Source: Bdellovibrionales bacterium
GTDB lineage: Bacteria; Bdellovibrionota; Bdellovibrionia; Bdellovibrionales; DASUEL01
Direction of reading: 5' to 3'
Assembly (NCBI GenBank): GCA_050250255.1
Contig: JBFWOZ010000003.1
Span: 1-64,000 of the forward strand
DNA length: 64,000 nucleotides
Shown: positions 18,234 through 49,120 of the stretch, in pieces
Layout: every line of letters begins with the position of its first letter
How positions within the stretch are numbered: the stretch's first letter is position 1
Notes under the pieces: generated by a model
Told to the model about the DNA's origin: nothing
Databases searched by the model: none
Seen by the model: only the letters and a program-made list of their open reading frames with translations
Translations under genes and position numbers: made by a program

Positions 18234-18281
18234 TTTTAGTTGACCGATTGCTGTCCTATCAGAGTTAATGAACTTAACAGC

Positions 18282-18545
18282 ATGAAGCCAACAGAACAGA
18301 ATTCAATGGAAGAAAAGTCTGGGACAGGACTCCCTCATTCCGAAACTATTTCGGACAAGCTTTTAGTTCTTCGACAGAAAGCGGGATTCACTCCCGGCAA
18401 ACTCGCGCAACTCACGGGTGTTTCGGTGCTCACAATCAATCTTTACGAAAACCCTTATTACGAACAGTATGATCTTAAAACGCTCAAGAAGCTTATTGAG
18501 GCTTGTGGCGGCAAGATAGACGTTACGATTCAAGTGCCTCTTTAA
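18282..18545 (+). CDS. XRE-family helix-turn-helix protein
   Basis: LRQKAGFTPGKLAQLTGVSVLTINLYE...LKTLKKLIEACG; start uncertain. Confidence 0.75.
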   Translation: MKPTEQNSMEEKSGTGLPHSETISDKLLVLRQKAGFTPGKLAQLTGVSVLTINLYENPYYEQYDLKTLKKLIEACGGKIDVTIQVPL

Positions 18546-21241
18546 GTCTCGGTAATACAGCGCATGACTTCGTCGACGGTGGTGAGACCATTGACGGCCA
18601 TTTGAAGTCCGCATTCAATCAACGAAACGAAGCCGTCGTTTTTTACACCTTTTTTGAGTTCTTCAAACCCTGCGCTCATTGTTAAAAGCGCTTTCACTTC
18701 CGGTGTTTTTCTCCAGACTTCGTAGACAGGGATACGATCATAAAAACCTGTATCTTTACATTTCGTGCAGCCACGTCCTTCGGACATATGCTCAGGCATT
18801 TGTGTCAGATGAGGAAGATGTTTTTTCAAAAATGCGATTTCGTGTGTTTTGATCGGTCGTGTCTCTATGCAGTGTTTGCAAATACGTCTCACAAGGCGCT
18901 GTGCGAGAACTCCAAGGAGGCCGGCGGCGATCGTACCTGGCGGGACACCCATCTCTTTCAAGCGAGGAGTAACATCAAGAGATGAATTCGTATGGAGCGT
19001 AGAGAGCACGAGGTGACCCGTGATGGCAGCTTTGAAAACGATTTGCGCGGATTCTTCATCGCGCACTTCACCCACCATGATGACATCTGGATCTTGCCGC
19101 AAAACGCTCCGTAAAGCTTTTGCGAAAGTCATTCCGGTCTTTTCGTTGACTTCGACCTGATTGATTCCTGCGATATTCATTTCAACAGGGTCTTCAAGCG
19201 TGATGAGGTTTGCATCAGAGCGATTCAATTCATTGAGGACCGAATAAAGTGTGGTGCTCTTACCCGAACCTGTAGGACCGGTGATGAGGAAGAGTCCTTG
19301 ATTACTCTGAGTGACTTCACGAAGGATCGAAATCAATCGACGGTCAGGAGCGAGCATGTTGTAAGGGATGATCGCATTTTTCGTTTGGATTAAACGCAAC
19401 ACCATTTTCTCGCCATTTTTTGTTGGGATGTAAGAAACGCGTGCAAGTATGGCGTTGTCACCAATTTTGAGTTTCAATTGTCCATCCTGTGGAATGAAAT
19501 GATTTGCGATATCCATTTGGCACATGACCTTAATGCGACTCATTAATTCACGTGCGAGATTTTTCGGAAATTTTTCTGAATGTTCTTTTAAGACCCCATC
19601 GATACGAAAGCGTACGACCATAATTTCTTCACCACATTCGAAGTGAATGTCACTTGCTCGGTCGTTGAATCCTCGAGCGATTAAATCATCCAGTAGCGCC
19701 ACGGTGTTGGCAGAAATTGCGGTGTTGCCAGGTGTAGGAGTTGGTGTCGTTGTTGCGTTAAGATTTTTTATGTAGTTTTGAAACTCTTTAGACCATTTCG
19801 AATAATCAGCTTCGCTGATCATTTCAAGTTTGATTCGGTAATCGAGCAAATAGCGTCCAACAAGCGGATAAATGGTTTCGCGATTGGCATTGACGGTTCC
19901 GATGGTCACTTCTTTTTCGTGAATTTTCACGGGAATGATTTTGTGATCATTGATGATAGAAAACGGAATGAGCGACGCCAATTCTTCGATCTTTAATGTT
20001 TCGGTGATGATCGAATGATTGATACCGGCGCGCTGTGAACGTTTTTGAATTTTTTGAGCAAGCCCTTGTGAGAGTCGTATGCAAAACTCCGAAGAAGCGA
20101 GGAGATGTCGAACGGTGTCTGCAGGTAAGGCGTGGAGGACCGTAGCGCGTGTCGCTTGTGCGACAGACGGCTGAGGAACATTTGCGAGAAGTGCTGCTTC
20201 TCCAAAATGGTTCCCTGGAAGGATTTGACCAGACTCCGTAAAGCCACTTGTTTTTGGTAAAGGACGATGAAGAGAGATCTTCCCTGATTCCATCAAGTAT
20301 AAATAATCGGCGGTTGCGTTATTGAGGAAAACTTTTTCTCCAGCTTTGAAGTGTAGAGTTTTAAAATGCGGAATAAGTTGCTCTAGGTATTCTGGCGGGA
20401 AATGGGAGAAGAGCAAATTGGATTTTAAAAGGCTGAGTAAGTCAGGATATGTCGGAACGATAGGTTCACGATTGATATTTTCTGAATCTGGCGGAGGATA
20501 GTTAACGTTTAATTTTTTAAAAAGTGCATCGTAATCGTTTTGTGTAATCAAACAAGTGTTGATAGTGAGATTCGTAGTAGATTTAAAATGTTCGTAAAAT
20601 GTGCTGTTGAAAGGATCTAAGAGGGAGACATGGAGAACATTGTTGTCGAGTGACAGAGGAAGCACGCCATATTTTTTCCACAGAGTGCTGGGCAAATGTT
20701 GAAGAATTTCTTTTCTCGGTCGTAAATAGCGCAGTTGATAAAACTCCACAAAAGATTTTGAAGAGTTAGATTTCATATACAAGCCAGCGAGGTAGACGGC
20801 AAGTCGTTGTGCGATTTGTGGATGAGTGCGAAGGACGTGCAGAAATGCATCGCCTTTGATTTTTAAAATTTCTGTTGGTTCGTAGGCAAAAGCGGATCCT
20901 GATTTGCTATTTTTTGAGAGCACGGAGAACTCTGAGAAGTGTGCGGGCTTTTTTAAAAGTATGAGACGAGCGATATGTTTGACCTCGGGTATGTACTTCA
21001 CAATTTCGACGGCACCGGATTTGATGAAGTACACGTGATCGCCAATTTCATTTTCTAAAATAATTGGTTCGCCAACTTCAAAACTTTGTTTTTCAAAAAA
21101 GCCGGCGATGGATTGCAGAAGTTCTTCTTCTGCATCTTTGAAAAGCACTGTGGTTTTTAAAAACTCAAAATCGTCTTCCGCAAGTTCTTCGCGATGCGCT
21201 AGAACTCCGTTTATGGACTCGAGTTTTGGAGCCGCCGTCAT
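18542..21241 (-). CDS. GspE/PilB-family assembly ATPase with two tandem cNMP-binding + GspE N-terminal domain modules
   Basis: ASDIHFE, GPTGSGKST, LRQDPDVIMVGEVRD, GHLVLSTLHTN, CKHC/CTKC zinc motif; N-terminal CNBDs (VYFIKSGAVEI...HFSEFSVL and LYLMESGKI...HFGEAALL), each followed by a T2SSE_N-like segment. Confidence 0.88.
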   Translation of the reverse strand: MTAAPKLESINGVLAHREELAEDDFEFLKTTVLFKDAEEELLQSIAGFFEKQSFEVGEPIILENEIGDHVYFIKSGAVEIVKYIPEVKHIARLILLKKPAHFSEFSVLSKNSKSGSAFAYEPTEILKIKGDAFLHVLRTHPQIAQRLAVYLAGLYMKSNSSKSFVEFYQLRYLRPRKEILQHLPSTLWKKYGVLPLSLDNNVLHVSLLDPFNSTFYEHFKSTTNLTINTCLITQNDYDALFKKLNVNYPPPDSENINREPIVPTYPDLLSLLKSNLLFSHFPPEYLEQLIPHFKTLHFKAGEKVFLNNATADYLYLMESGKISLHRPLPKTSGFTESGQILPGNHFGEAALLANVPQPSVAQATRATVLHALPADTVRHLLASSEFCIRLSQGLAQKIQKRSQRAGINHSIITETLKIEELASLIPFSIINDHKIIPVKIHEKEVTIGTVNANRETIYPLVGRYLLDYRIKLEMISEADYSKWSKEFQNYIKNLNATTTPTPTPGNTAISANTVALLDDLIARGFNDRASDIHFECGEEIMVVRFRIDGVLKEHSEKFPKNLARELMSRIKVMCQMDIANHFIPQDGQLKLKIGDNAILARVSYIPTKNGEKMVLRLIQTKNAIIPYNMLAPDRRLISILREVTQSNQGLFLITGPTGSGKSTTLYSVLNELNRSDANLITLEDPVEMNIAGINQVEVNEKTGMTFAKALRSVLRQDPDVIMVGEVRDEESAQIVFKAAITGHLVLSTLHTNSSLDVTPRLKEMGVPPGTIAAGLLGVLAQRLVRRICKHCIETRPIKTHEIAFLKKHLPHLTQMPEHMSEGRGCTKCKDTGFYDRIPVYEVWRKTPEVKALLTMSAGFEELKKGVKNDGFVSLIECGLQMAVNGLTTVDEVMRCITET

Positions 21242-21248
21242 ACTCTAG

Positions 21249-21275
21249 GTATCGGAAAAACCTCAGATTTTTCGA
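21249..21275 (-). promoter_or_regulatory. sigma28 (FliA)-like promoter
   Basis: TCGA-N15-TCCGATAC, ending 7 nt before the ATG of the ATPase gene. Confidence 0.5.
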
Positions 21276-21813: not shown

Positions 21814-22335
21814 ATGCTAAAAAAATGGTGTTATTTCTCTGTGGGTCGCTATCAAGTCAAGATTGATCAAGAAGATCTCAAGCGGGTCGCTGAATATACA
21901 TGGCGTATTCGCCGTCGGAAAGACAGTTCCAAACTTAGCATTATTACGAGTGTCCGCACCGATAGAGGTGTGAAGAACGTGAGTCTTCCCCAGTTTCTTA
22001 TGCGACCGGCGAAGGGAAAGCTCGTGTATCCGAGACGTCATCTTGAGGGCTTCGATTACCGCAAAAACAACTTAATTGTCTGTTCCATTCAACAACGTCA
22101 GCAAATGCTTCCGAAAAAAAGAAAAGACACCAGTTCAAAGTATCGAGGCGTCTCCTATCTTAAAAAGAAAGACAAATGGCGTGCGGCGATTACGGTCGAC
22201 AGACGATCTATCAACCTCGGAGATTTTGACTCTGAAAAGGAAGCCGCTTTAGCTTATAATCGCGCTTCCAAAAAATATTTTGGCGAATTCCATTTCGAAA
22301 ACACCATTACCCAAAGTAAAAATCGTCGCCTCTAA
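21814..22335 (+). CDS. AP2-domain protein with degenerate HNH-like region
   Basis: SKYRGVSY...KWRAAITV...INLGDFDSEKEAALAYNRASKKYFGEF (AP2), preceded by a segment resembling the HNH part of HNH-AP2 proteins. Confidence 0.82.
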   Translation: MLKKWCYFSVGRYQVKIDQEDLKRVAEYTWRIRRRKDSSKLSIITSVRTDRGVKNVSLPQFLMRPAKGKLVYPRRHLEGFDYRKNNLIVCSIQQRQQMLPKKRKDTSSKYRGVSYLKKKDKWRAAITVDRRSINLGDFDSEKEAALAYNRASKKYFGEFHFENTITQSKNRRL

Positions 22336-43251: not shown

Positions 43252-45633
43252 TTAGTTGCGATAACGATCAAAGGAGCTGGAGTTCATAGTACGCGCGCCG
43301 CTTCCATAGTTGATGGTGAAGGCAAAGCCGTACTTTGTTTCGCTTCCTGAATCGTTAATAGGATGATCTTCAAACCATGTGAATCCCCAGCAATCCCCTG
43401 GTGGAATGATGTCAATCACGTAATTAAAGTTGGTGAGGCGTCCGCTAGTTGTTGAAAAGTTCAGTCCACCTGCAACTTGAAAGTATTTTGATTTATAGCC
43501 AATGGCGGGGGTTACGTTCTGACTGTAGTTTAAAACATCAGAATGAGTGGCATACCGGAAAGGATATGAGGTGGCGTTTGGTTGGTAGAGCGTCTTCTTG
43601 ATTTGAAATTCATGGGCTGTATTGATTTGTAAAAAATTACGACCAAAATTATAGCGTACGCGCGAAGAAAAAGCGGTGATGTTGTCATAGTGGTAGTAGC
43701 GGGCCGTACTGTTGCTTTCGAGATATCCCAAACGCAAATCGAGAATACCGTACAGAGGTCCGTAAGGCTCGAGAGCTTCACCCTCTTTATGTTCCCTTGA
43801 CGCTTCGTAATTATCATAGGGTTGAGAGAGAGTGAAGTTGGCAAGGCGGTAATAGTTAGAGCTTTCTTCATTTCCCGTTCGACGAGTGAAAATATTGGTG
43901 AGGTTAAAGGTTGTAATGTGACGATCATACAATCTGTCATAGTCATCAAATTGGGGGAAGTCGGAATTGCTCAGGGCTTGCTCACGTTTGAAGAATGGTT
44001 CGTTCTCACCGAAAAAAGGATGGGGCGGTTGATCCAGCCACGGAATATTTGTGTAGACAAGCTCAGGCTGTACTTCGTGTTTGTATCTTGTTGCTTTGGG
44101 GTTTTCTCGGTCACCTAAAATCGTAGCAAATTGAGTGCGTCCAGAAATAGTTCCTCTTACATACCGGCGAGAAGCCGAAGGTTGATCAGTGATTCCAAAT
44201 TGGTAATTGCTCTCGAGATAAGAAATGGAAGGAAGCAGGTCGAGATATCGACCGGCGTGTAGAGGATAACTTAATCGTGGTTCAAATTCAGCTCGCTGAC
44301 CAGCTCGAATCAAGTCGGTATTAGGGTCAAACACTTGTGGGTTGGTAGCATTTTTGTTCACGGTTGGGGGAGTGGCGCGTCTTCCGGTCACGGGGTTGAC
44401 GTTGAGTTTATCAAAGTTTCCAGAGCTACGAGCAAAGTTCGTATACCGACCTTCCATTTCGAAAAGCATATCTCCTACAACTTTTTGTGGAGCGAAAGTA
44501 TATTTGATGCTGGGATAGCGGTGAACAGACTCGGAATCTCCAGAGAGCGGGTCTGCGGCCAGAAGGTTTTTATGGTGACTGGCTTCGATGCTGACATGAT
44601 GGTTGTCAGAATTTTTTGTAAGAGAGGCCTTGCTTACTAAAGCTGGGTCTCCATGCCCTCGAATATCTCCGGGGAAATCACGAGGGTATTTCGTATCGGT
44701 AACGTAATTGATTTGTGTTCGTTGAACGTAATTATTGGGAAGATCATAATAGTGACGATACTTAAAAAGGTATCGTGGGATATGCTGACCTTGACGGTCA
44801 GAGAGTTCATCAGGCGTAGCAAAACCTTTATCTCTTAAAAAAGAAGTATCAAGTTCTCCAAGACTTCTGTCTGTGAGCATATATCGATAATTGAGATGTC
44901 CTTTCGGACCCCTTCCCTGGTAGTTTTCAAAAGTCCACGTGGAGTCTGTGCTATCAGACATCGCCCAGAAGAAAGATTGGGAATAGACGAATCGCGACTG
45001 ATTTCCGTAATAAAGTTGCGGGAAGAGAAGACCTGATTTTCTTTGAGTGTTTATGGGAACCATCAAATAAGGAAGCCAAAAAATGGGAACCCCAGAGATG
45101 TACATGACGGGATTCCAAATGTGGGCGTAGTCACCCATAGTCGCGCGGATGCTGGAACCGCGAAACTTCCAGGATGCGGGACAAGTGTTACATGCCGTAA
45201 ACTCTCCCGAGCGGACGATGTACTCGTCGTCGCCAATTTTTTCAATGACCTCGCCGGTGAACTGAATCTGTGCACCTTTTTCGACGTAGGCGTTATAAAC
45301 AATCCCCTTGTTGGTCTCATAGTTAAAGGTTCCGTGAGTGCCGATCGCTTTTGAAAGGGGACTGATGAGAGAAAGATCTCCCGTAGCTTCAATCGTTTTT
45401 GTTTTTACGTTCACAGTGGCTTGATTGGCGCGAATGTGTTGGTTTTTAAAAACCAACTGCACGTTACCCTTTAAGAAAATCATTTGTTTTTTTGTGTCTC
45501 GTACCATGGAGTCAGCGTTGAGAAGCATGGACTCCACTTTTGAAGACACTTGCGCATTGCCATGTATGGAAAAGCCAAGGACAGCGAGAAAAACAAAATA
45601 TATGAACGTGCCTCTAAAACACAAAATTGTCAT
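43252..45633 (-). CDS. lptD: LPS assembly outer-membrane protein LptD
   Basis: OstA-like N-terminus (NADSM, LKGNVQL), FTACNTCPASW, PIFWLPY, RKSGLLFP, DCWGF near the C-terminus; start uncertain. Confidence 0.88.
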   Translation of the reverse strand: MTILCFRGTFIYFVFLAVLGFSIHGNAQVSSKVESMLLNADSMVRDTKKQMIFLKGNVQLVFKNQHIRANQATVNVKTKTIEATGDLSLISPLSKAIGTHGTFNYETNKGIVYNAYVEKGAQIQFTGEVIEKIGDDEYIVRSGEFTACNTCPASWKFRGSSIRATMGDYAHIWNPVMYISGVPIFWLPYLMVPINTQRKSGLLFPQLYYGNQSRFVYSQSFFWAMSDSTDSTWTFENYQGRGPKGHLNYRYMLTDRSLGELDTSFLRDKGFATPDELSDRQGQHIPRYLFKYRHYYDLPNNYVQRTQINYVTDTKYPRDFPGDIRGHGDPALVSKASLTKNSDNHHVSIEASHHKNLLAADPLSGDSESVHRYPSIKYTFAPQKVVGDMLFEMEGRYTNFARSSGNFDKLNVNPVTGRRATPPTVNKNATNPQVFDPNTDLIRAGQRAEFEPRLSYPLHAGRYLDLLPSISYLESNYQFGITDQPSASRRYVRGTISGRTQFATILGDRENPKATRYKHEVQPELVYTNIPWLDQPPHPFFGENEPFFKREQALSNSDFPQFDDYDRLYDRHITTFNLTNIFTRRTGNEESSNYYRLANFTLSQPYDNYEASREHKEGEALEPYGPLYGILDLRLGYLESNSTARYYHYDNITAFSSRVRYNFGRNFLQINTAHEFQIKKTLYQPNATSYPFRYATHSDVLNYSQNVTPAIGYKSKYFQVAGGLNFSTTSGRLTNFNYVIDIIPPGDCWGFTWFEDHPINDSGSETKYGFAFTINYGSGARTMNSSSFDRYRN

Positions 45634-46396
45634 CTTGTCTAAGAAGCTGAATTCTTTTTGCTGCATGACTTGTTTTGGCTCGCTTATAAAACTCATCCAT
45701 GAGTTCATCAAAAAATTGAGGTTTAAAATGTGCAATGTAGATGGGAACTTCTTTGTTATCGATTTTATTCAGTTCATTTAACAATTGGGCAGTCGTGAAG
45801 TGACCAGAAGCTTTTGCTAACGAATCAAGGCGGGTAGGAAATGAAATTTCTGTAAAAATCGCTTTTAAATTAGGGCATTGATTGGCAGCCATCCAGAGGG
45901 CGTCAGTCGGTCCTGTATCTCCGCTAAAAACAATTTGAGATTTGCCATCATCTAAGATGAAGCCGACAGCATGTGCAGGATGATTCACCTTTTCATGATG
46001 AATTTTGATACCATGAATGTTGAATTCTTTTTCAAGAGGTTCGAAATGGAGAAGCGTTTTGGTGCGTGCGGTATCAACATAGATTTTAGAAAAATCAGGC
46101 CAGAGGACATTGTTAAAAAGATGTTTATGAATGTCTTCGAGGATCACCGATGTTGAACGTAGTACGAGTGGTTTACGATCTTTATGGAAAGAATTTTCGA
46201 TGAGAAAGCAGATGTCTTTTACATGATCAATGTGTGGGTGTGTGATGAGAATGTGCTCAATTTTGCCTTGCTCTTCTAATGTCAATGAAGAGGCCGCAGA
46301 ACCACAATCGATGAGAAAATCATCGTTGATCATGTAACAACTTGTTCTGTAGCCAGGAGCTGTGCCGCCATGGCTTCCAATGATTCTTACATTCAT
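45614..46396 (-). CDS. Metallo-beta-lactamase-fold class II 3',5'-cyclic nucleotide phosphodiesterase
   Basis: IGSHGG, LIDCG, ITHPHIDH, FSGDTGPT, EISFP, SGHFT; adjacent to the cyclase. Confidence 0.82.
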   Translation of the reverse strand: MNVRIIGSHGGTAPGYRTSCYMINDDFLIDCGSAASSLTLEEQGKIEHILITHPHIDHVKDICFLIENSFHKDRKPLVLRSTSVILEDIHKHLFNNVLWPDFSKIYVDTARTKTLLHFEPLEKEFNIHGIKIHHEKVNHPAHAVGFILDDGKSQIVFSGDTGPTDALWMAANQCPNLKAIFTEISFPTRLDSLAKASGHFTTAQLLNELNKIDNKEVPIYIAHFKPQFFDELMDEFYKRAKTSHAAKRIQLLRQDDNFVF

Positions 46397-46447
46397 CCCT
46401 CATTTATTAGGCAACGAGGGTGAGCGTCTGTCAACAAATCCCCAGTG

Positions 46448-49120
46448 CTATTTCGTCTTCATTTCGTACACGCCGTCCCAGTCTGGAGGAGGGGGGCTTT
46501 CCTTGTACTCAGTTGTGCGTTCGAGATAGAGCTTAGAGGGATTATCGTCAGGGTTGATTTTCAATGCATTTGCGAAATGCACGTGAGCTTCATCCCAATT
46601 TTTCTCGTGATATTGTTTAAAACCCTTCTCAAACTCCTCGAGCATAGGCAGTGCTTTGCACTCCTTGGATTTTGGAGCAATCAGCTCGTAAATTTTTACG
46701 GGTTGCATCTTGCCTTTAACTCGTACCCAATCGACTTCCCGAGCTATAAAGTCATTTTTCACTTCTTCGTACGTAAATTCGCTGATGATAATACGTGTTC
46801 CGTATTGCTTATTAATACTTTCAAGACGAGAGCCCAGATTTACCGCGTCCCCCATGACCGTGTAGCTTCTCACGGTTTCTGAACCCATGTTACCAACACT
46901 CATTTCTCCAGTGTTGAGACCGATTCCGACATCGATAGTGGGGAGGCCCATCGCTTTGAATTCCTGATTGAGCTTAGGAAGCAAATCAATCATATCAATG
47001 GCACATTGGCAGGCCTTCTTTGCGTGGTCTGGATAAGGAATCGGCGCTCCAAAAAACGCCATGATGGCATCGCCCATATATTTATCAAGAGTACCGTCAT
47101 TTTTAAAAACCAGCGCTGTCATAGGCGTTAAATATTTATTTAAAACATCAGAAAGTACTCGGGGATCGAGTTTCTCAGAAATAGTAGTAAAGCCACGCAA
47201 ATCAGAAAAGATCACTGTCATGCGCTGCTTTTTTCCACCCAAATTGATGTTATCTGGGTGCTTTAAAACCTCAGCAACAATGGCGGGCGAAACGTATTTT
47301 TCAAAAGTGCCTCTCATCGCCTTCTTTTTACGCTCTTCAGTAAGATATTTGTAAAAAGTGAGCATCACGTACATTGTAAAAACCATCATGAGTGGAAGAA
47401 TGACGGCGACAATGATACCGGCCTTGAAGAGGTAGAAGCGATCGACGAAGTAAATAGCTCCGACAGTACCTGCTGTCACAAGCAGCCCCTGAACAGCTCC
47501 TAAATGAGAAAGTGCGAAGCTTAAAATAAGGCCCATGATAGCTAACGCCATCAGCATTTTAGGGCCTTCACTGTGATGATTCACGAGAAAATCAGATCTC
47601 AACATATTGTCGATGAGGTTGGCGTGAGTTTCTACTCCAGGATAATTTTCGGAAAAAGGTGTGACACGAAGATCGTAAGTGCCGGTAGAGGTGGCGCCAA
47701 AAATAAGGATTTTATTTTTTAAGAAATCGGCTTTCTTAACCACTTGTTGAATAACCTTGTCGCCTTGTCGAATGCTAATGTTGGCATCATCACGTTTATT
47801 AAAAAGTTCATAGATGCTCATGTGCGGGAACATGTGATCGCTTCCGGCATAGTTGATTAAAAGTCGACCTTGGCCATCAACGGGAAGAGTTTGTACTTCA
47901 GTGCCTTCGCTATCAATGAGTGCAAGTTTCGAAACGATTTTGGAGGCGGGATCCGTAGGATCTTGCTCTAAAGTGATCATAGCGTTGAGATCTTTTGCGA
48001 GGAGAACGGATTTGAGTGCGAGAGAGCTCATAAAGAGACCACCGTAACGAACCAGAACACCACTTCGACGAACGGTTCCGTCTCCGTCTAGCGTGGCATT
48101 GAAATAGGCCGTATGTTTTGCGCCCTCGTTAATGACGGAGAGGTTGGTCCACCATCGACCTGTACGATGAACGGTATTATTAAGACTAGAGGTTTTAATT
48201 CGGTGAACGGCTTCATCAAAGTTGAGTTCCGCCCATCCCTCGATGCCTGTACGTAATTGTGGCCAAGACAAAGCGAGTTGTTCGTACATCTCATCTTTGT
48301 GTTCGCCTGTAGAAATGAGCCAACGATCACAATAGGCTGTTTGCGCTTTCCCGATAGCCTGAGGCAATTCTTCTGGGTTTTTGTTTTCCTCAGCCCATTG
48401 TTTGGTCACATGAGTTTCAATATCTGTAAAACGCTGTTGTAAGAAAGCTTTGAAAGCTTCAGGTATTGCAAAAGTATCTTGATCAACCGCGATGACGGGT
48501 TTTTCTTCTTTTTCCAGATGTGCATATTGAGGAGTTTTTTCTGCCAAAAGATTTCCACAAAATTCCTGATAAGGGTAGTAACTATCAGAAGGTTCGTCGT
48601 AGTAAGAACCCATGACAAGGTGGCTCGATTGTTTTTCAACCGTACGTGCGAGAACCCAATCCGTGTTTGCTTTTGATAATTCTTGGTCGATGAGCTCGTT
48701 GAGTTCGCTATTCACGAGTTTCGACTCTTTGATTTTTGAAAGTGAAAGGGTTGCTTGATTTTTATCTGGCTCTACAAAAACGGCATCGAAGGCCACAACT
48801 TTGGCTCCATAGCTGACAAGAAGATCAATGATCTCTGCTATTTTACCTCTTGGCCATGGCCATCGACCGATCTTTTCCTCCGAGAGTTCATCAACAGCGA
48901 TAATTGCAACATCCGTTGAGCCGGGCCGTGGTCCACGGTCGTTCAAGCGGATATCGATGGATTTTTGATGCATTTCTGTTAAACGCTGTAAAACCCAACT
49001 TGAAGAATGAGTGTCGACATAAAATTGAAAACCCATCCAGAGAAAAATAAAAGTAATGATGAGTCCTAATTTAAAGGCGGAGGGTGTAAATAATTTTGTA
49101 ATAAATAATTTCATATCCAC
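46448..49120 (-). CDS. CHASE2-domain class III adenylate cyclase with C-terminal TPR
   Basis: GRWPWPR, DGDGTVRR, YPGVETHA (CHASE2); three TMs; FSDLRGFT, DKYMGDAIMAFFG, YTVMGDAVNLGSRLE. Confidence 0.93.
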   Translation of the reverse strand: MDMKLFITKLFTPSAFKLGLIITFIFLWMGFQFYVDTHSSSWVLQRLTEMHQKSIDIRLNDRGPRPGSTDVAIIAVDELSEEKIGRWPWPRGKIAEIIDLLVSYGAKVVAFDAVFVEPDKNQATLSLSKIKESKLVNSELNELIDQELSKANTDWVLARTVEKQSSHLVMGSYYDEPSDSYYPYQEFCGNLLAEKTPQYAHLEKEEKPVIAVDQDTFAIPEAFKAFLQQRFTDIETHVTKQWAEENKNPEELPQAIGKAQTAYCDRWLISTGEHKDEMYEQLALSWPQLRTGIEGWAELNFDEAVHRIKTSSLNNTVHRTGRWWTNLSVINEGAKHTAYFNATLDGDGTVRRSGVLVRYGGLFMSSLALKSVLLAKDLNAMITLEQDPTDPASKIVSKLALIDSEGTEVQTLPVDGQGRLLINYAGSDHMFPHMSIYELFNKRDDANISIRQGDKVIQQVVKKADFLKNKILIFGATSTGTYDLRVTPFSENYPGVETHANLIDNMLRSDFLVNHHSEGPKMLMALAIMGLILSFALSHLGAVQGLLVTAGTVGAIYFVDRFYLFKAGIIVAVILPLMMVFTMYVMLTFYKYLTEERKKKAMRGTFEKYVSPAIVAEVLKHPDNINLGGKKQRMTVIFSDLRGFTTISEKLDPRVLSDVLNKYLTPMTALVFKNDGTLDKYMGDAIMAFFGAPIPYPDHAKKACQCAIDMIDLLPKLNQEFKAMGLPTIDVGIGLNTGEMSVGNMGSETVRSYTVMGDAVNLGSRLESINKQYGTRIIISEFTYEEVKNDFIAREVDWVRVKGKMQPVKIYELIAPKSKECKALPMLEEFEKGFKQYHEKNWDEAHVHFANALKINPDDNPSKLYLERTTEYKESPPPPDWDGVYEMKTK

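Follow-up and report, generated by a model that had tools for sequence, protein, structure and literature searches.

A PilB/GspE-type extension ATPase with a duplicated CNBD-MshEN_C cap, one conserved non-canonical putative nucleotide pocket and a FliA-type promoter motif in uncultured Bdellovibrionales

An uncultured relative of predatory Bdellovibrio, a Bdellovibrionales bacterium, encodes an extension ATPase of the PilB/GspE type that is capped by two tandem modules, each consisting of a cyclic-nucleotide-binding domain (CNBD) plus the alpha/beta subdomain MshEN_C. We analyzed 64,000 nucleotides (nt) of contig JBFWOZ010000003.1, referred to as the window, in which the open reading frame (ORF) 18542-21241 on the minus strand starts with ATG and encodes 899 amino acids (aa) in the order CNBD–MshEN_C–CNBD–MshEN_C–PilB/GspE ATPase. 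This doubled family is a real, conserved and rare variant of second-messenger-capped extension ATPases. Only the first CNBD is conserved like a working pocket, and a small-molecule signal would likely switch the motor in the hunting phase. Specifically, we tentatively favor, at somewhat less than an even chance, an accessory attack-phase extension motor that has a FliA-type promoter and whose gate is a cyclic mononucleotide weakly bound to CNBD1. The gene and its parts are as follows.

18542..21241, minus strand: whole (CNBD-MshEN_C)2-PilB/GspE ATPase gene, 899 aa, from ORF, Pfam and family profiles
20780..21169, minus strand: CNBD1, aa 25-154, with the highest conservation among the N-terminal domains (40% mean pairwise identity, 74 sequences)
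20885..20938, minus strand: rewired phosphate-binding cassette of CNBD1, aa 102-119, with Gly replaced by Ser/Ala, Glu retained and Arg replaced by Lys/His in most members
20495..20749, minus strand: N1, MshEN_C/GSPII alpha-beta subdomain, aa 165-249, without preceding MshEN_N c-di-GMP helices
20042..20446, minus strand: CNBD2, aa 266-400, with a decayed cassette and a C-helix predicted to pair with that of CNBD1
19772..19996, minus strand: N2, ATPase-proximal MshEN_C, aa 416-490, in which an R-Y-L-x-x-Y-R stretch and E444 are conserved across the family
18557..19711, minus strand: ATPase core of the PilB/GspE type, aa 511-895, containing Walker A (aa 655-662), Walker B, the Asp box, the His box and a Cys4 zinc site
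21250..21255, minus strand: FliA/sigma28-type -10 box CCGATA, 8 nt 5' of the ATG, with a -35 that is poor here and matched across relatives

A preliminary description of this DNA had proposed a doubled [cNMP-binding + N-domain] architecture before an intact ATPase core of the type II secretion system (T2SS) or type IV pilus, and both proposals hold. In Pfam, the N-terminal segments do score as CNBDs (cNMP_binding, two stretches, E 9e-26), PF05157 (MshEN/T2SSE_N) matches in two stretches (E 6e-13) and T2SSE covers aa 514-894 (E 3e-114; 382 bits against a cut-off of 24.9); the domain borders listed above come from profiles built from relatives. Both Walker motifs (A and B), the Asp and His boxes and the Cys4 site were all found. 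By its ATPase domain, its motifs and its N-terminal GSPII domain the protein is assigned to the PilB/GspE extension ATPase superfamily (PF00437 with PF05157). The best sequence match of the N domains in the PDB is to the GSPII domains of Thermus PilF (E 0.004), with a weak match to N1D of X. citri PilB. By position, the N domains appear to represent the alpha/beta MshEN_C subdomain only, with a CNBD standing where the MshEN_N helices usually lie. The relaxed form of the 24-residue RLGxxL-type MshEN motif for cyclic di-GMP (c-di-GMP) described by Wang 2016 (PMC5013675) had no match in P0001-P0007, the query included, in line with the earlier claim that such a motif is absent; this is a strict test, because the PilB of the host genome itself likewise escaped the pattern.

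The two putative nucleotide pockets differ in conservation. For the analysis of the family we pooled all sources and removed near-copies, yielding 74 non-redundant sequences, a few of them without N2 or with N1 undetected. The pockets were aligned for 74 CNBD1, 74 CNBD2, 43 single-module and 196 background domains, of which the background domains are matches to the query and the single-module domains mostly close kin, neither being an independent sample. The canonical G-E..R signature is present in 1/74 CNBD1 and 0/74 CNBD2 domains but in 43/43 single-module and 163/196 background domains, whereas the pattern [S/A]-E..[K/H/R] occurs in 69/74 CNBD1, 18/74 CNBD2, 0/43 single-module and 0/196 background domains. 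The deviating cassettes noted earlier, FSEFSVLSKNSKSG and FGEAALLANVPQPS, are present in the translation together with both N-domain peptides, and the Arg position is occupied by K113 and Q357. Compared to the canonical cassette for cyclic AMP (cAMP) or cyclic GMP (cGMP) and its beta2-beta3 Gly, the query has S103/K113/N64 in CNBD1 and G347/Q357/N308 in CNBD2. CNBD1 retained the ribose Glu E104 (72/74), S106 (72/74), S114 (62/74) and S116 (73/74), and its position 113 is basic in 73/74 sequences (K 40, H 20, R 13). In CNBD2, the glycines lost from CNBD1 and the C-helix Arg are mostly kept, the phosphate Arg is lost and the cassette is variable. Across the 74 sequences mean pairwise identity amounts to 40% for CNBD1, 26% for N1, 27% for CNBD2 and 30% for N2, and the cassettes share 58% identity in CNBD1 versus 33% in CNBD2; among the first 14 members CNBD1 (45%) was as conserved as the ATPase N2D (46%). 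The two CNBDs are not equivalent, since the conservation expected of a working pocket is seen in CNBD1 only. Pocket 1 is therefore under selection without being a classical cAMP site, and pocket 2 seems to be dead.

The earlier suggestion was regulation by cAMP/cGMP or a non-canonical ligand; ordinary high-affinity binding of cAMP or cGMP is unlikely at either site given the scarcity of G-E..R. According to PMC2246266, the beta2-beta3 Gly co-evolves with the Arg in cAMP binders, and exchange of this Arg for Lys in PKA reduces cAMP affinity about ten-fold without abolishing it. Ser occupies the Ala202 position of CNBD1 in 72/74 sequences and thus not the phosphate-blocking Glu of the trypanosome PKA-R (PMC10959531). 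A trypanosomatid-type nucleoside-binding model for CNBD1 was rejected, as the Glu at the Ala202 position is missing (PMC10959531). A PADLOC match of CNBD1 to PycTIR (E 6e-10) was set aside as an identification; it reflects general CNBD similarity, since PycTIR keeps the canonical cassette.

Structure prediction suggests how the two modules are arranged. The AlphaFold2 model reached a predicted TM-score (pTM) of 0.54 for the whole chain and of 0.83 for aa 20-496, with a predicted local distance difference test (pLDDT) score of 88. When modules 1 and 2 were folded as two chains, the complex score was 0.89 versus 0.00 for the best control, a mark that is reached by 116/157 solved complexes and 2/215 mismatched pairs. 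The two-chain runs agreed in at least 91% of contacts, with a partner pLDDT of at least 89. The best predicted contacts link aa 144-152 to aa 387-398, C-helix to C-helix as in CRP dimers, and the predicted interface between the modules also includes cassette residues (104-114), the beta4-beta5 hairpin of CNBD1 (81-95) and N2 residues 442-476; R92 and E444, both nearly invariant, occur together in 56/74 sequences. The two modules are thus predicted to form one intramolecular CRP-like pseudo-dimer via their C-helices, and each MshEN_C is predicted to come after the C-helix, at the place taken in CRP by the DNA-binding domain. The CNBD fold matches Clr (7PZA; VIA Z 18.1, root-mean-square deviation (rmsd) 1.8, 143 aligned), and the top structural match is the cUMP-bound CNBD of PycTIR (Z 18.9, rmsd 7.3, 148 aligned), tied with cAMP and cGMP binders. 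Structure searches with the N-terminal half, in which the MshEN_C parts were barely tested, returned CNBD matches only and did not list the same four-domain chain. In CRP, Ser128 touches the base from the partner subunit. This residue has been equated with Asn143 of PycTIR, five residues past the C-helix Arg (PMC11224242). Its equivalent for pocket 1 would be residue 402, which is N/G/T/S in 71/74 sequences (Asn in 34), whereas residue 159, the candidate for pocket 2, is variable, which fits one live site. Like the CRP-family dimers Bd1971, Clr and the PycTIR CNBD, the query combines a CNBD with a long C-helix and a predicted C-helix coiled-coil dimer. However, its dimer is predicted within one chain and asymmetric, and its output is MshEN_C plus ATPase instead of helix-turn-helix (HTH), EAL or TIR domains.

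The doubled architecture was detected in 9/401 genomes of the phylum with a single-protein query and in 19/285 genomes of the class with a profile search, both counts including the host genome; in the best-sampled genus the profile search found it in 0/40 genomes. A library of 50% representatives contained about 40 strong matches to the family, mostly of 830-930 aa. All named members belong to the Bdellovibrionales, every named carrier is an uncultured genome, and in the species-genome scan the named carriers were Bdellovibrionales-type metagenome-assembled genomes (MAGs) at 15/15 loci. In the literature searched we did not find the doubled, rewired architecture, although supplements of other type IV pilus census papers may list it. 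One subgroup (L031:8223-10757; P0042, P0034, P0044) lost the second MshEN_C, giving CNBD-N-CNBD-ATPase with the ATPase motifs kept where complete, and a copy in a high-GC MAG (L047:6009-6578) is apparently broken by a frame change inside CNBD1. In one genome the first module of the family has two matches, each in its own open frame of about 900 aa (G512:C359 and C151).

The ATPase domains of the family form a single clade with a support of 98 in FastTree (73 rows) and 100 in quick IQ-TREE trees. This clade branches apart from the PilB and GspE of the carriers themselves, and its branch is long. Uniting it with PilB, GspE or the single-module family yielded p-values of the approximately unbiased test (p-AU) of 0.27, 0.35 and 0.46, respectively, so that none of these sister groups was rejected. 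HofB of E. coli joined the clade at a support of 90-94, which is probably a long-branch and composition effect. Among 70 full ATPase domains, Walker A is intact in 69, Walker B in 68, the His box in 68, the Asp box in 69 and the Cys4 site in 69, and all catalytic motifs are intact in 66. Member P0039 of the tandem family has degenerate Walker A/B motifs and His box and is a pseudo-ATPase. The query itself scored below the NCBIfam cut-offs of TIGR02538 for PilB of the type IVa pilus (443 versus 676 bits) and of TIGR02533 for GspE (437 versus 630 bits) and below that of the TfpB model (385 versus 850 bits); it falls outside the PilB and GspE clades, has no pilB-pilT-pilC context, and the gspE of the genome lies elsewhere, on contig C20.

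CNBD-PilB fusions as such are not unique, since a family with one module and canonical pockets is abundant. Searching with a single-module relative gave 1387 matches, the best 120 of which all carry cNMP_binding, PF05157 and T2SSE; the few named ones among these 120 are Acidobacteriota (the family is also given as Acidobacteriota/Terriglobia). In the ESM Atlas, CNBD+MshEN clusters occur in Myxococcota and Hydrogenedentota. No paper on the single CNBD-MshEN_C-ATPase family was found in the literature searched. C-helix and N domain are 31 residues apart both in P0007 and in module 2 and 32 residues apart in module 1, and this near-equality suggests that the CNBD-MshEN_C module is one evolutionary unit that was duplicated in the doubled family. 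The two families therefore share the module and nearly the same linker spacing, but the single-module family has one module with a canonical pocket, whereas the doubled family has two, one with a rewired and one with a decayed pocket. Kinship of their ATPase cores is neither shown nor rejected by the p-AU of 0.46. By eye, the single-module protein P0127 has an altered Walker B motif and His box. Many proteins of about 1000 aa (P0275, P0281-P0381), from Patescibacteria wherever named, carry two PilB-type ATPase domains per chain, and a few carry three.

Comparison with known systems places the query close to MshEN-gated PilB in layout, yet by sequence it does not qualify as an MshEN receptor, a PilB or GspE ortholog or a canonical CNBD. 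Its ATPase core is 34-41% identical to those of Geobacter PilB (5TSH/5ZFR), Thermus PilF (5OIU) and Vibrio GspE (4PHT), with a Foldseek E of about 1e-35 and the same motifs; unlike these, it forms part of its own clade, has two CNBDs and lies outside pil and gsp operons. The tandem (MshEN)2-4-T2SSE proteins (Wang 2016, PMC5013675) likewise carry repeats of the GSPII module N-terminal to an extension ATPase, and as in MshEN ATPases a second-messenger-type sensor directly precedes each MshEN_C, although here it is a CNBD that replaces the four-helix c-di-GMP subdomain MshEN_N. A CNBD is likewise fused to a PilB/GspE-type ATPase in Desulfotalea DP2226 (MshEN-T2SSE-cNMPbind), which PMC5013675 gives as an architecture only, but that CNBD is single and C-terminal instead of N-terminal, double and welded to MshEN_C; the part of Supplementary Table 4 of PMC5013675 that we consulted includes this C-terminal fusion and no N-terminal one. 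TfpB of Acinetobacter baylyi is, like the query, an additional extension ATPase next to the PilB of the same cell (PMC11656802), yet no sensor domain of TfpB is described in the parts of PMC11656802 consulted.

Consistent with such an extra motor, and as had been proposed for this gene, the host genome has its own machinery elsewhere, namely pilB-pilT-pilC, pilM-type genes, a gsp operon and matches to a Tad-type ATPase and platform. Within the window there is no T2SSF (PilC/GspF) match and no ORF with a prepilin motif, which agrees with the earlier statement that pilC/gspF and pilin genes are missing nearby. ORF clustering of 21 distinct loci revealed shared neighbors only between close relatives, with neighbors in other genomes judged by eye and several contigs being short. 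At least one ordinary PilB/GspE is present in each of the ten other genomes in which the ATPase core was sought, and eight of these genomes are carriers that have it besides the doubled protein. The host genome further encodes FliA. It has matches to the flagellin family (seven), to class III cyclases (four) and to other CNBDs (five), and three of these CNBDs, read by eye, have a canonical cassette. Around the gene, the gene of a small HTH_3 protein (window 18240-18545, plus strand) is convergent with the ATPase gene and overlaps its stop by 4 nt, and an AP2-domain protein (window 21814-22335, plus strand) is encoded upstream; neither recurs in other loci. At 25 kb from the ATPase gene, at 45614-49120 on the minus strand, the window encodes an 890-aa membrane class III nucleotidyl cyclase (Pfam) and, after it, a 260-aa protein that on inspection by eye looks like a phosphodiesterase of the metallo-beta-lactamase fold. 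In one carrier, the ATPase gene is directly followed and overlapped by the gene of a 436-aa membrane protein (L016:11484-12794) whose C-terminus is CNBD-like and which by eye looks like an ion channel.

A sigma28-like promoter had also been proposed. The attack-phase FliA consensus is TTAAG-N16-CCGATA (PMC3627812). The proposal is half right for the query: CCGATA is present and the box is conserved across the family, but the -35 position of the query has the sequence CTCGA, which matches TTAAG at 1/5 positions. In 14/21 loci the strict pattern CCGA[TA][AT] is found no more than 20 nt from an in-frame ATG, compared to 47/1296 ORFs of the host genome. With a pattern relaxed after inspection, a FliA-type box precedes the gene in 19/19 loci with a readable start, two of the 21 loci being dropped as their start could not be read, and is located 7-10 nt upstream in 17 of them. 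The match to TTAAG, which had no part in choosing the CCGAT-like box, peaks at a spacer of 16 (mean 2.84/5 versus 0.95-2.26 for other spacers), with at least three matches in 12/19 loci. The short distance between box and ATG suggests a nearly leaderless mRNA. Scans for sigma70 promoters and terminators gave chance-level counts, and the listing gives no RNA holder here, which counts neither way. The same CCGAT-like box precedes the host's pilB and one pilT. Among 3482 ATG contexts of the host genome, CCGAT is enriched 7-8 nt 5' of ATG (17 counts at two distances versus about 2 per distance elsewhere; examples are C53:14521, C2:13268, C38:20411 and C39:22682). This pattern suggests a class of nearly leaderless FliA-type transcripts in the host, pilB and one pilT included.

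Given these observations, the intact PilB/GspE-class ATPase with its duplicated cap likely serves the type IV pilus of the cell as an accessory extension motor, although a T2SS might also be the machine it serves, and the FliA-type promoter would likely lead to expression in the free-swimming attack phase. Gating by a phosphate-bearing nucleotide is predicted at CNBD1 only. A ligand in pocket 1 would shift the C-helices and the beta4-beta5 hairpin, both of which touch the ATPase-proximal N2 in the model, and this shift could alter docking on PilM/PilC or the activity of the hexamer. The most likely ligand would be a 3',5'-cyclic mononucleotide, bound weakly enough to make a high-threshold switch, and a dimer built inside one chain would leave pocket 2 free to decay into a structural partner. 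Several points weigh against this interpretation. CNBD1 is altered at several positions jointly, with the cassette Gly kept in 2/74, the Arg in 13/74 and the beta2-beta3 Gly in 9/74 sequences and the C-helix Arg mostly replaced by Leu, and PMC2246266 links such a non-canonical pattern to families binding other ligands. The tree places the clade with none of PilB, GspE and the single-module family. The -35 of the query copy is poor. A CCGAT-like box lies near the start in only 3/11 other canonical pilB loci checked, so that the promoter link to type IV pili over T2SS is weak. The complex score of 0.89 may partly reflect likeness to solved CRP-family dimers, since the contacts have CRP-dimer geometry, and the run used its own alignment and an accompanying cAMP ligand (not scored), unlike the calibration. 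Finally, the predatory lifestyle of these uncultured genomes is inferred from taxonomy.

An unlikely alternative is that both CNBDs are ligand-blind and that the cap is rigid and serves structure or protein docking, with CNBD1 conserved for packing on N2 or binding a partner protein. The CNB-homology domains of KCNH channels are a model for such a cap. The joint losses in CNBD1 just described would agree with it, as would a bulky Phe at position 105 in 54/74 sequences, the location of cassette residues 104-114 inside the predicted interface between the modules, and the conservation of E79, R92, E444 and R469, all but E79 of which lie in that predicted interface. However, conservation in CNBD1 falls on the ligand-facing residues (E104, S106, the basic residue 113, S114 and S116), and the same positions drift freely in CNBD2 despite the same structural role in the dimer. 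Instead, the pocket 1 ligand might not be 3',5'-cAMP or cGMP but cUMP or cCMP, a 2',3'-cyclic nucleotide, AMP, an anionic metabolite or a prey-derived cue, comparable to the CNBDs of CooA and CprK, which we regard as decidedly unlikely. The [S/A]E..[K/H/R] pattern, confined to this family in our alignment, would suit this idea, and PMC2246266 associates non-canonical cassettes with other ligands; the conservation of partner-helix residue 402, equivalent to PycTIR Asn143 (PMC11224242), and the top structural match to the cUMP-bound PycTIR CNBD, though tied, point in the same direction. Still, the cUMP-binding PycTIR keeps the canonical G-E-A..R-S (PMC11224242), and pyrimidine specificity therefore fails to predict the CNBD1 pattern; moreover, the nucleoside-type Glu is missing and no neighboring gene indicates a special ligand.

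It is improbable that the ATPase is a signaling or scaffold unit that docks on pilus or secretion parts without building a filament, comparable to M. xanthus PilB signaling to exopolysaccharide production. The gene is an orphan in all 21 loci, its branch is long and remote from the carriers' PilB and GspE, and P0039 lacks catalytic motifs, but these motifs are intact in nearly all other members, and in A. baylyi the same pilus is served by a second motor, TfpB, that is phylogenetically distinct (PMC11656802). That both CNBDs are ordinary cAMP/cGMP sites acting cooperatively, as in the cAMP-sensing dimer Bd1971 of Bdellovibrio (PMC6717892), is highly improbable: both score as cNMP_binding and keep the fold, yet the canonical signature that most background domains show is virtually missing from both. 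A bolder version of the gated-motor reading, which we consider unlikely, is that a cAMP-type motor module was duplicated in Bdellovibrionales and locked as an asymmetric one-chain CRP-like dimer, whose surviving pocket was retuned to a messenger or prey cue new to CNBDs, switching on a dedicated attack-phase filament motor.

The significance of the doubled family is limited in that its named carriers are all uncultured, that it is missing from the 40 genomes of the best-sampled genus, and that the idea of a CNBD-PilB fusion is already backed by simpler and commoner families. According to PMC11656802, cAMP governs type IV pili via transcription, while c-di-GMP acts directly at the motor. A CNBD welded to the motor at the usual position of MshEN_N would represent direct control by a mononucleotide-type signal. 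The doubled family is a natural experiment, an intramolecular asymmetric CNBD pair in which one strongly conserved pocket is non-canonical. Its N-terminal half is predicted to be a compact unit of 480 aa that would be suited to ligand screening, and the residues for mutation are clear. The conserved FliA-type promoter would connect the doubled motor to the attack-phase program of predatory bacteria.

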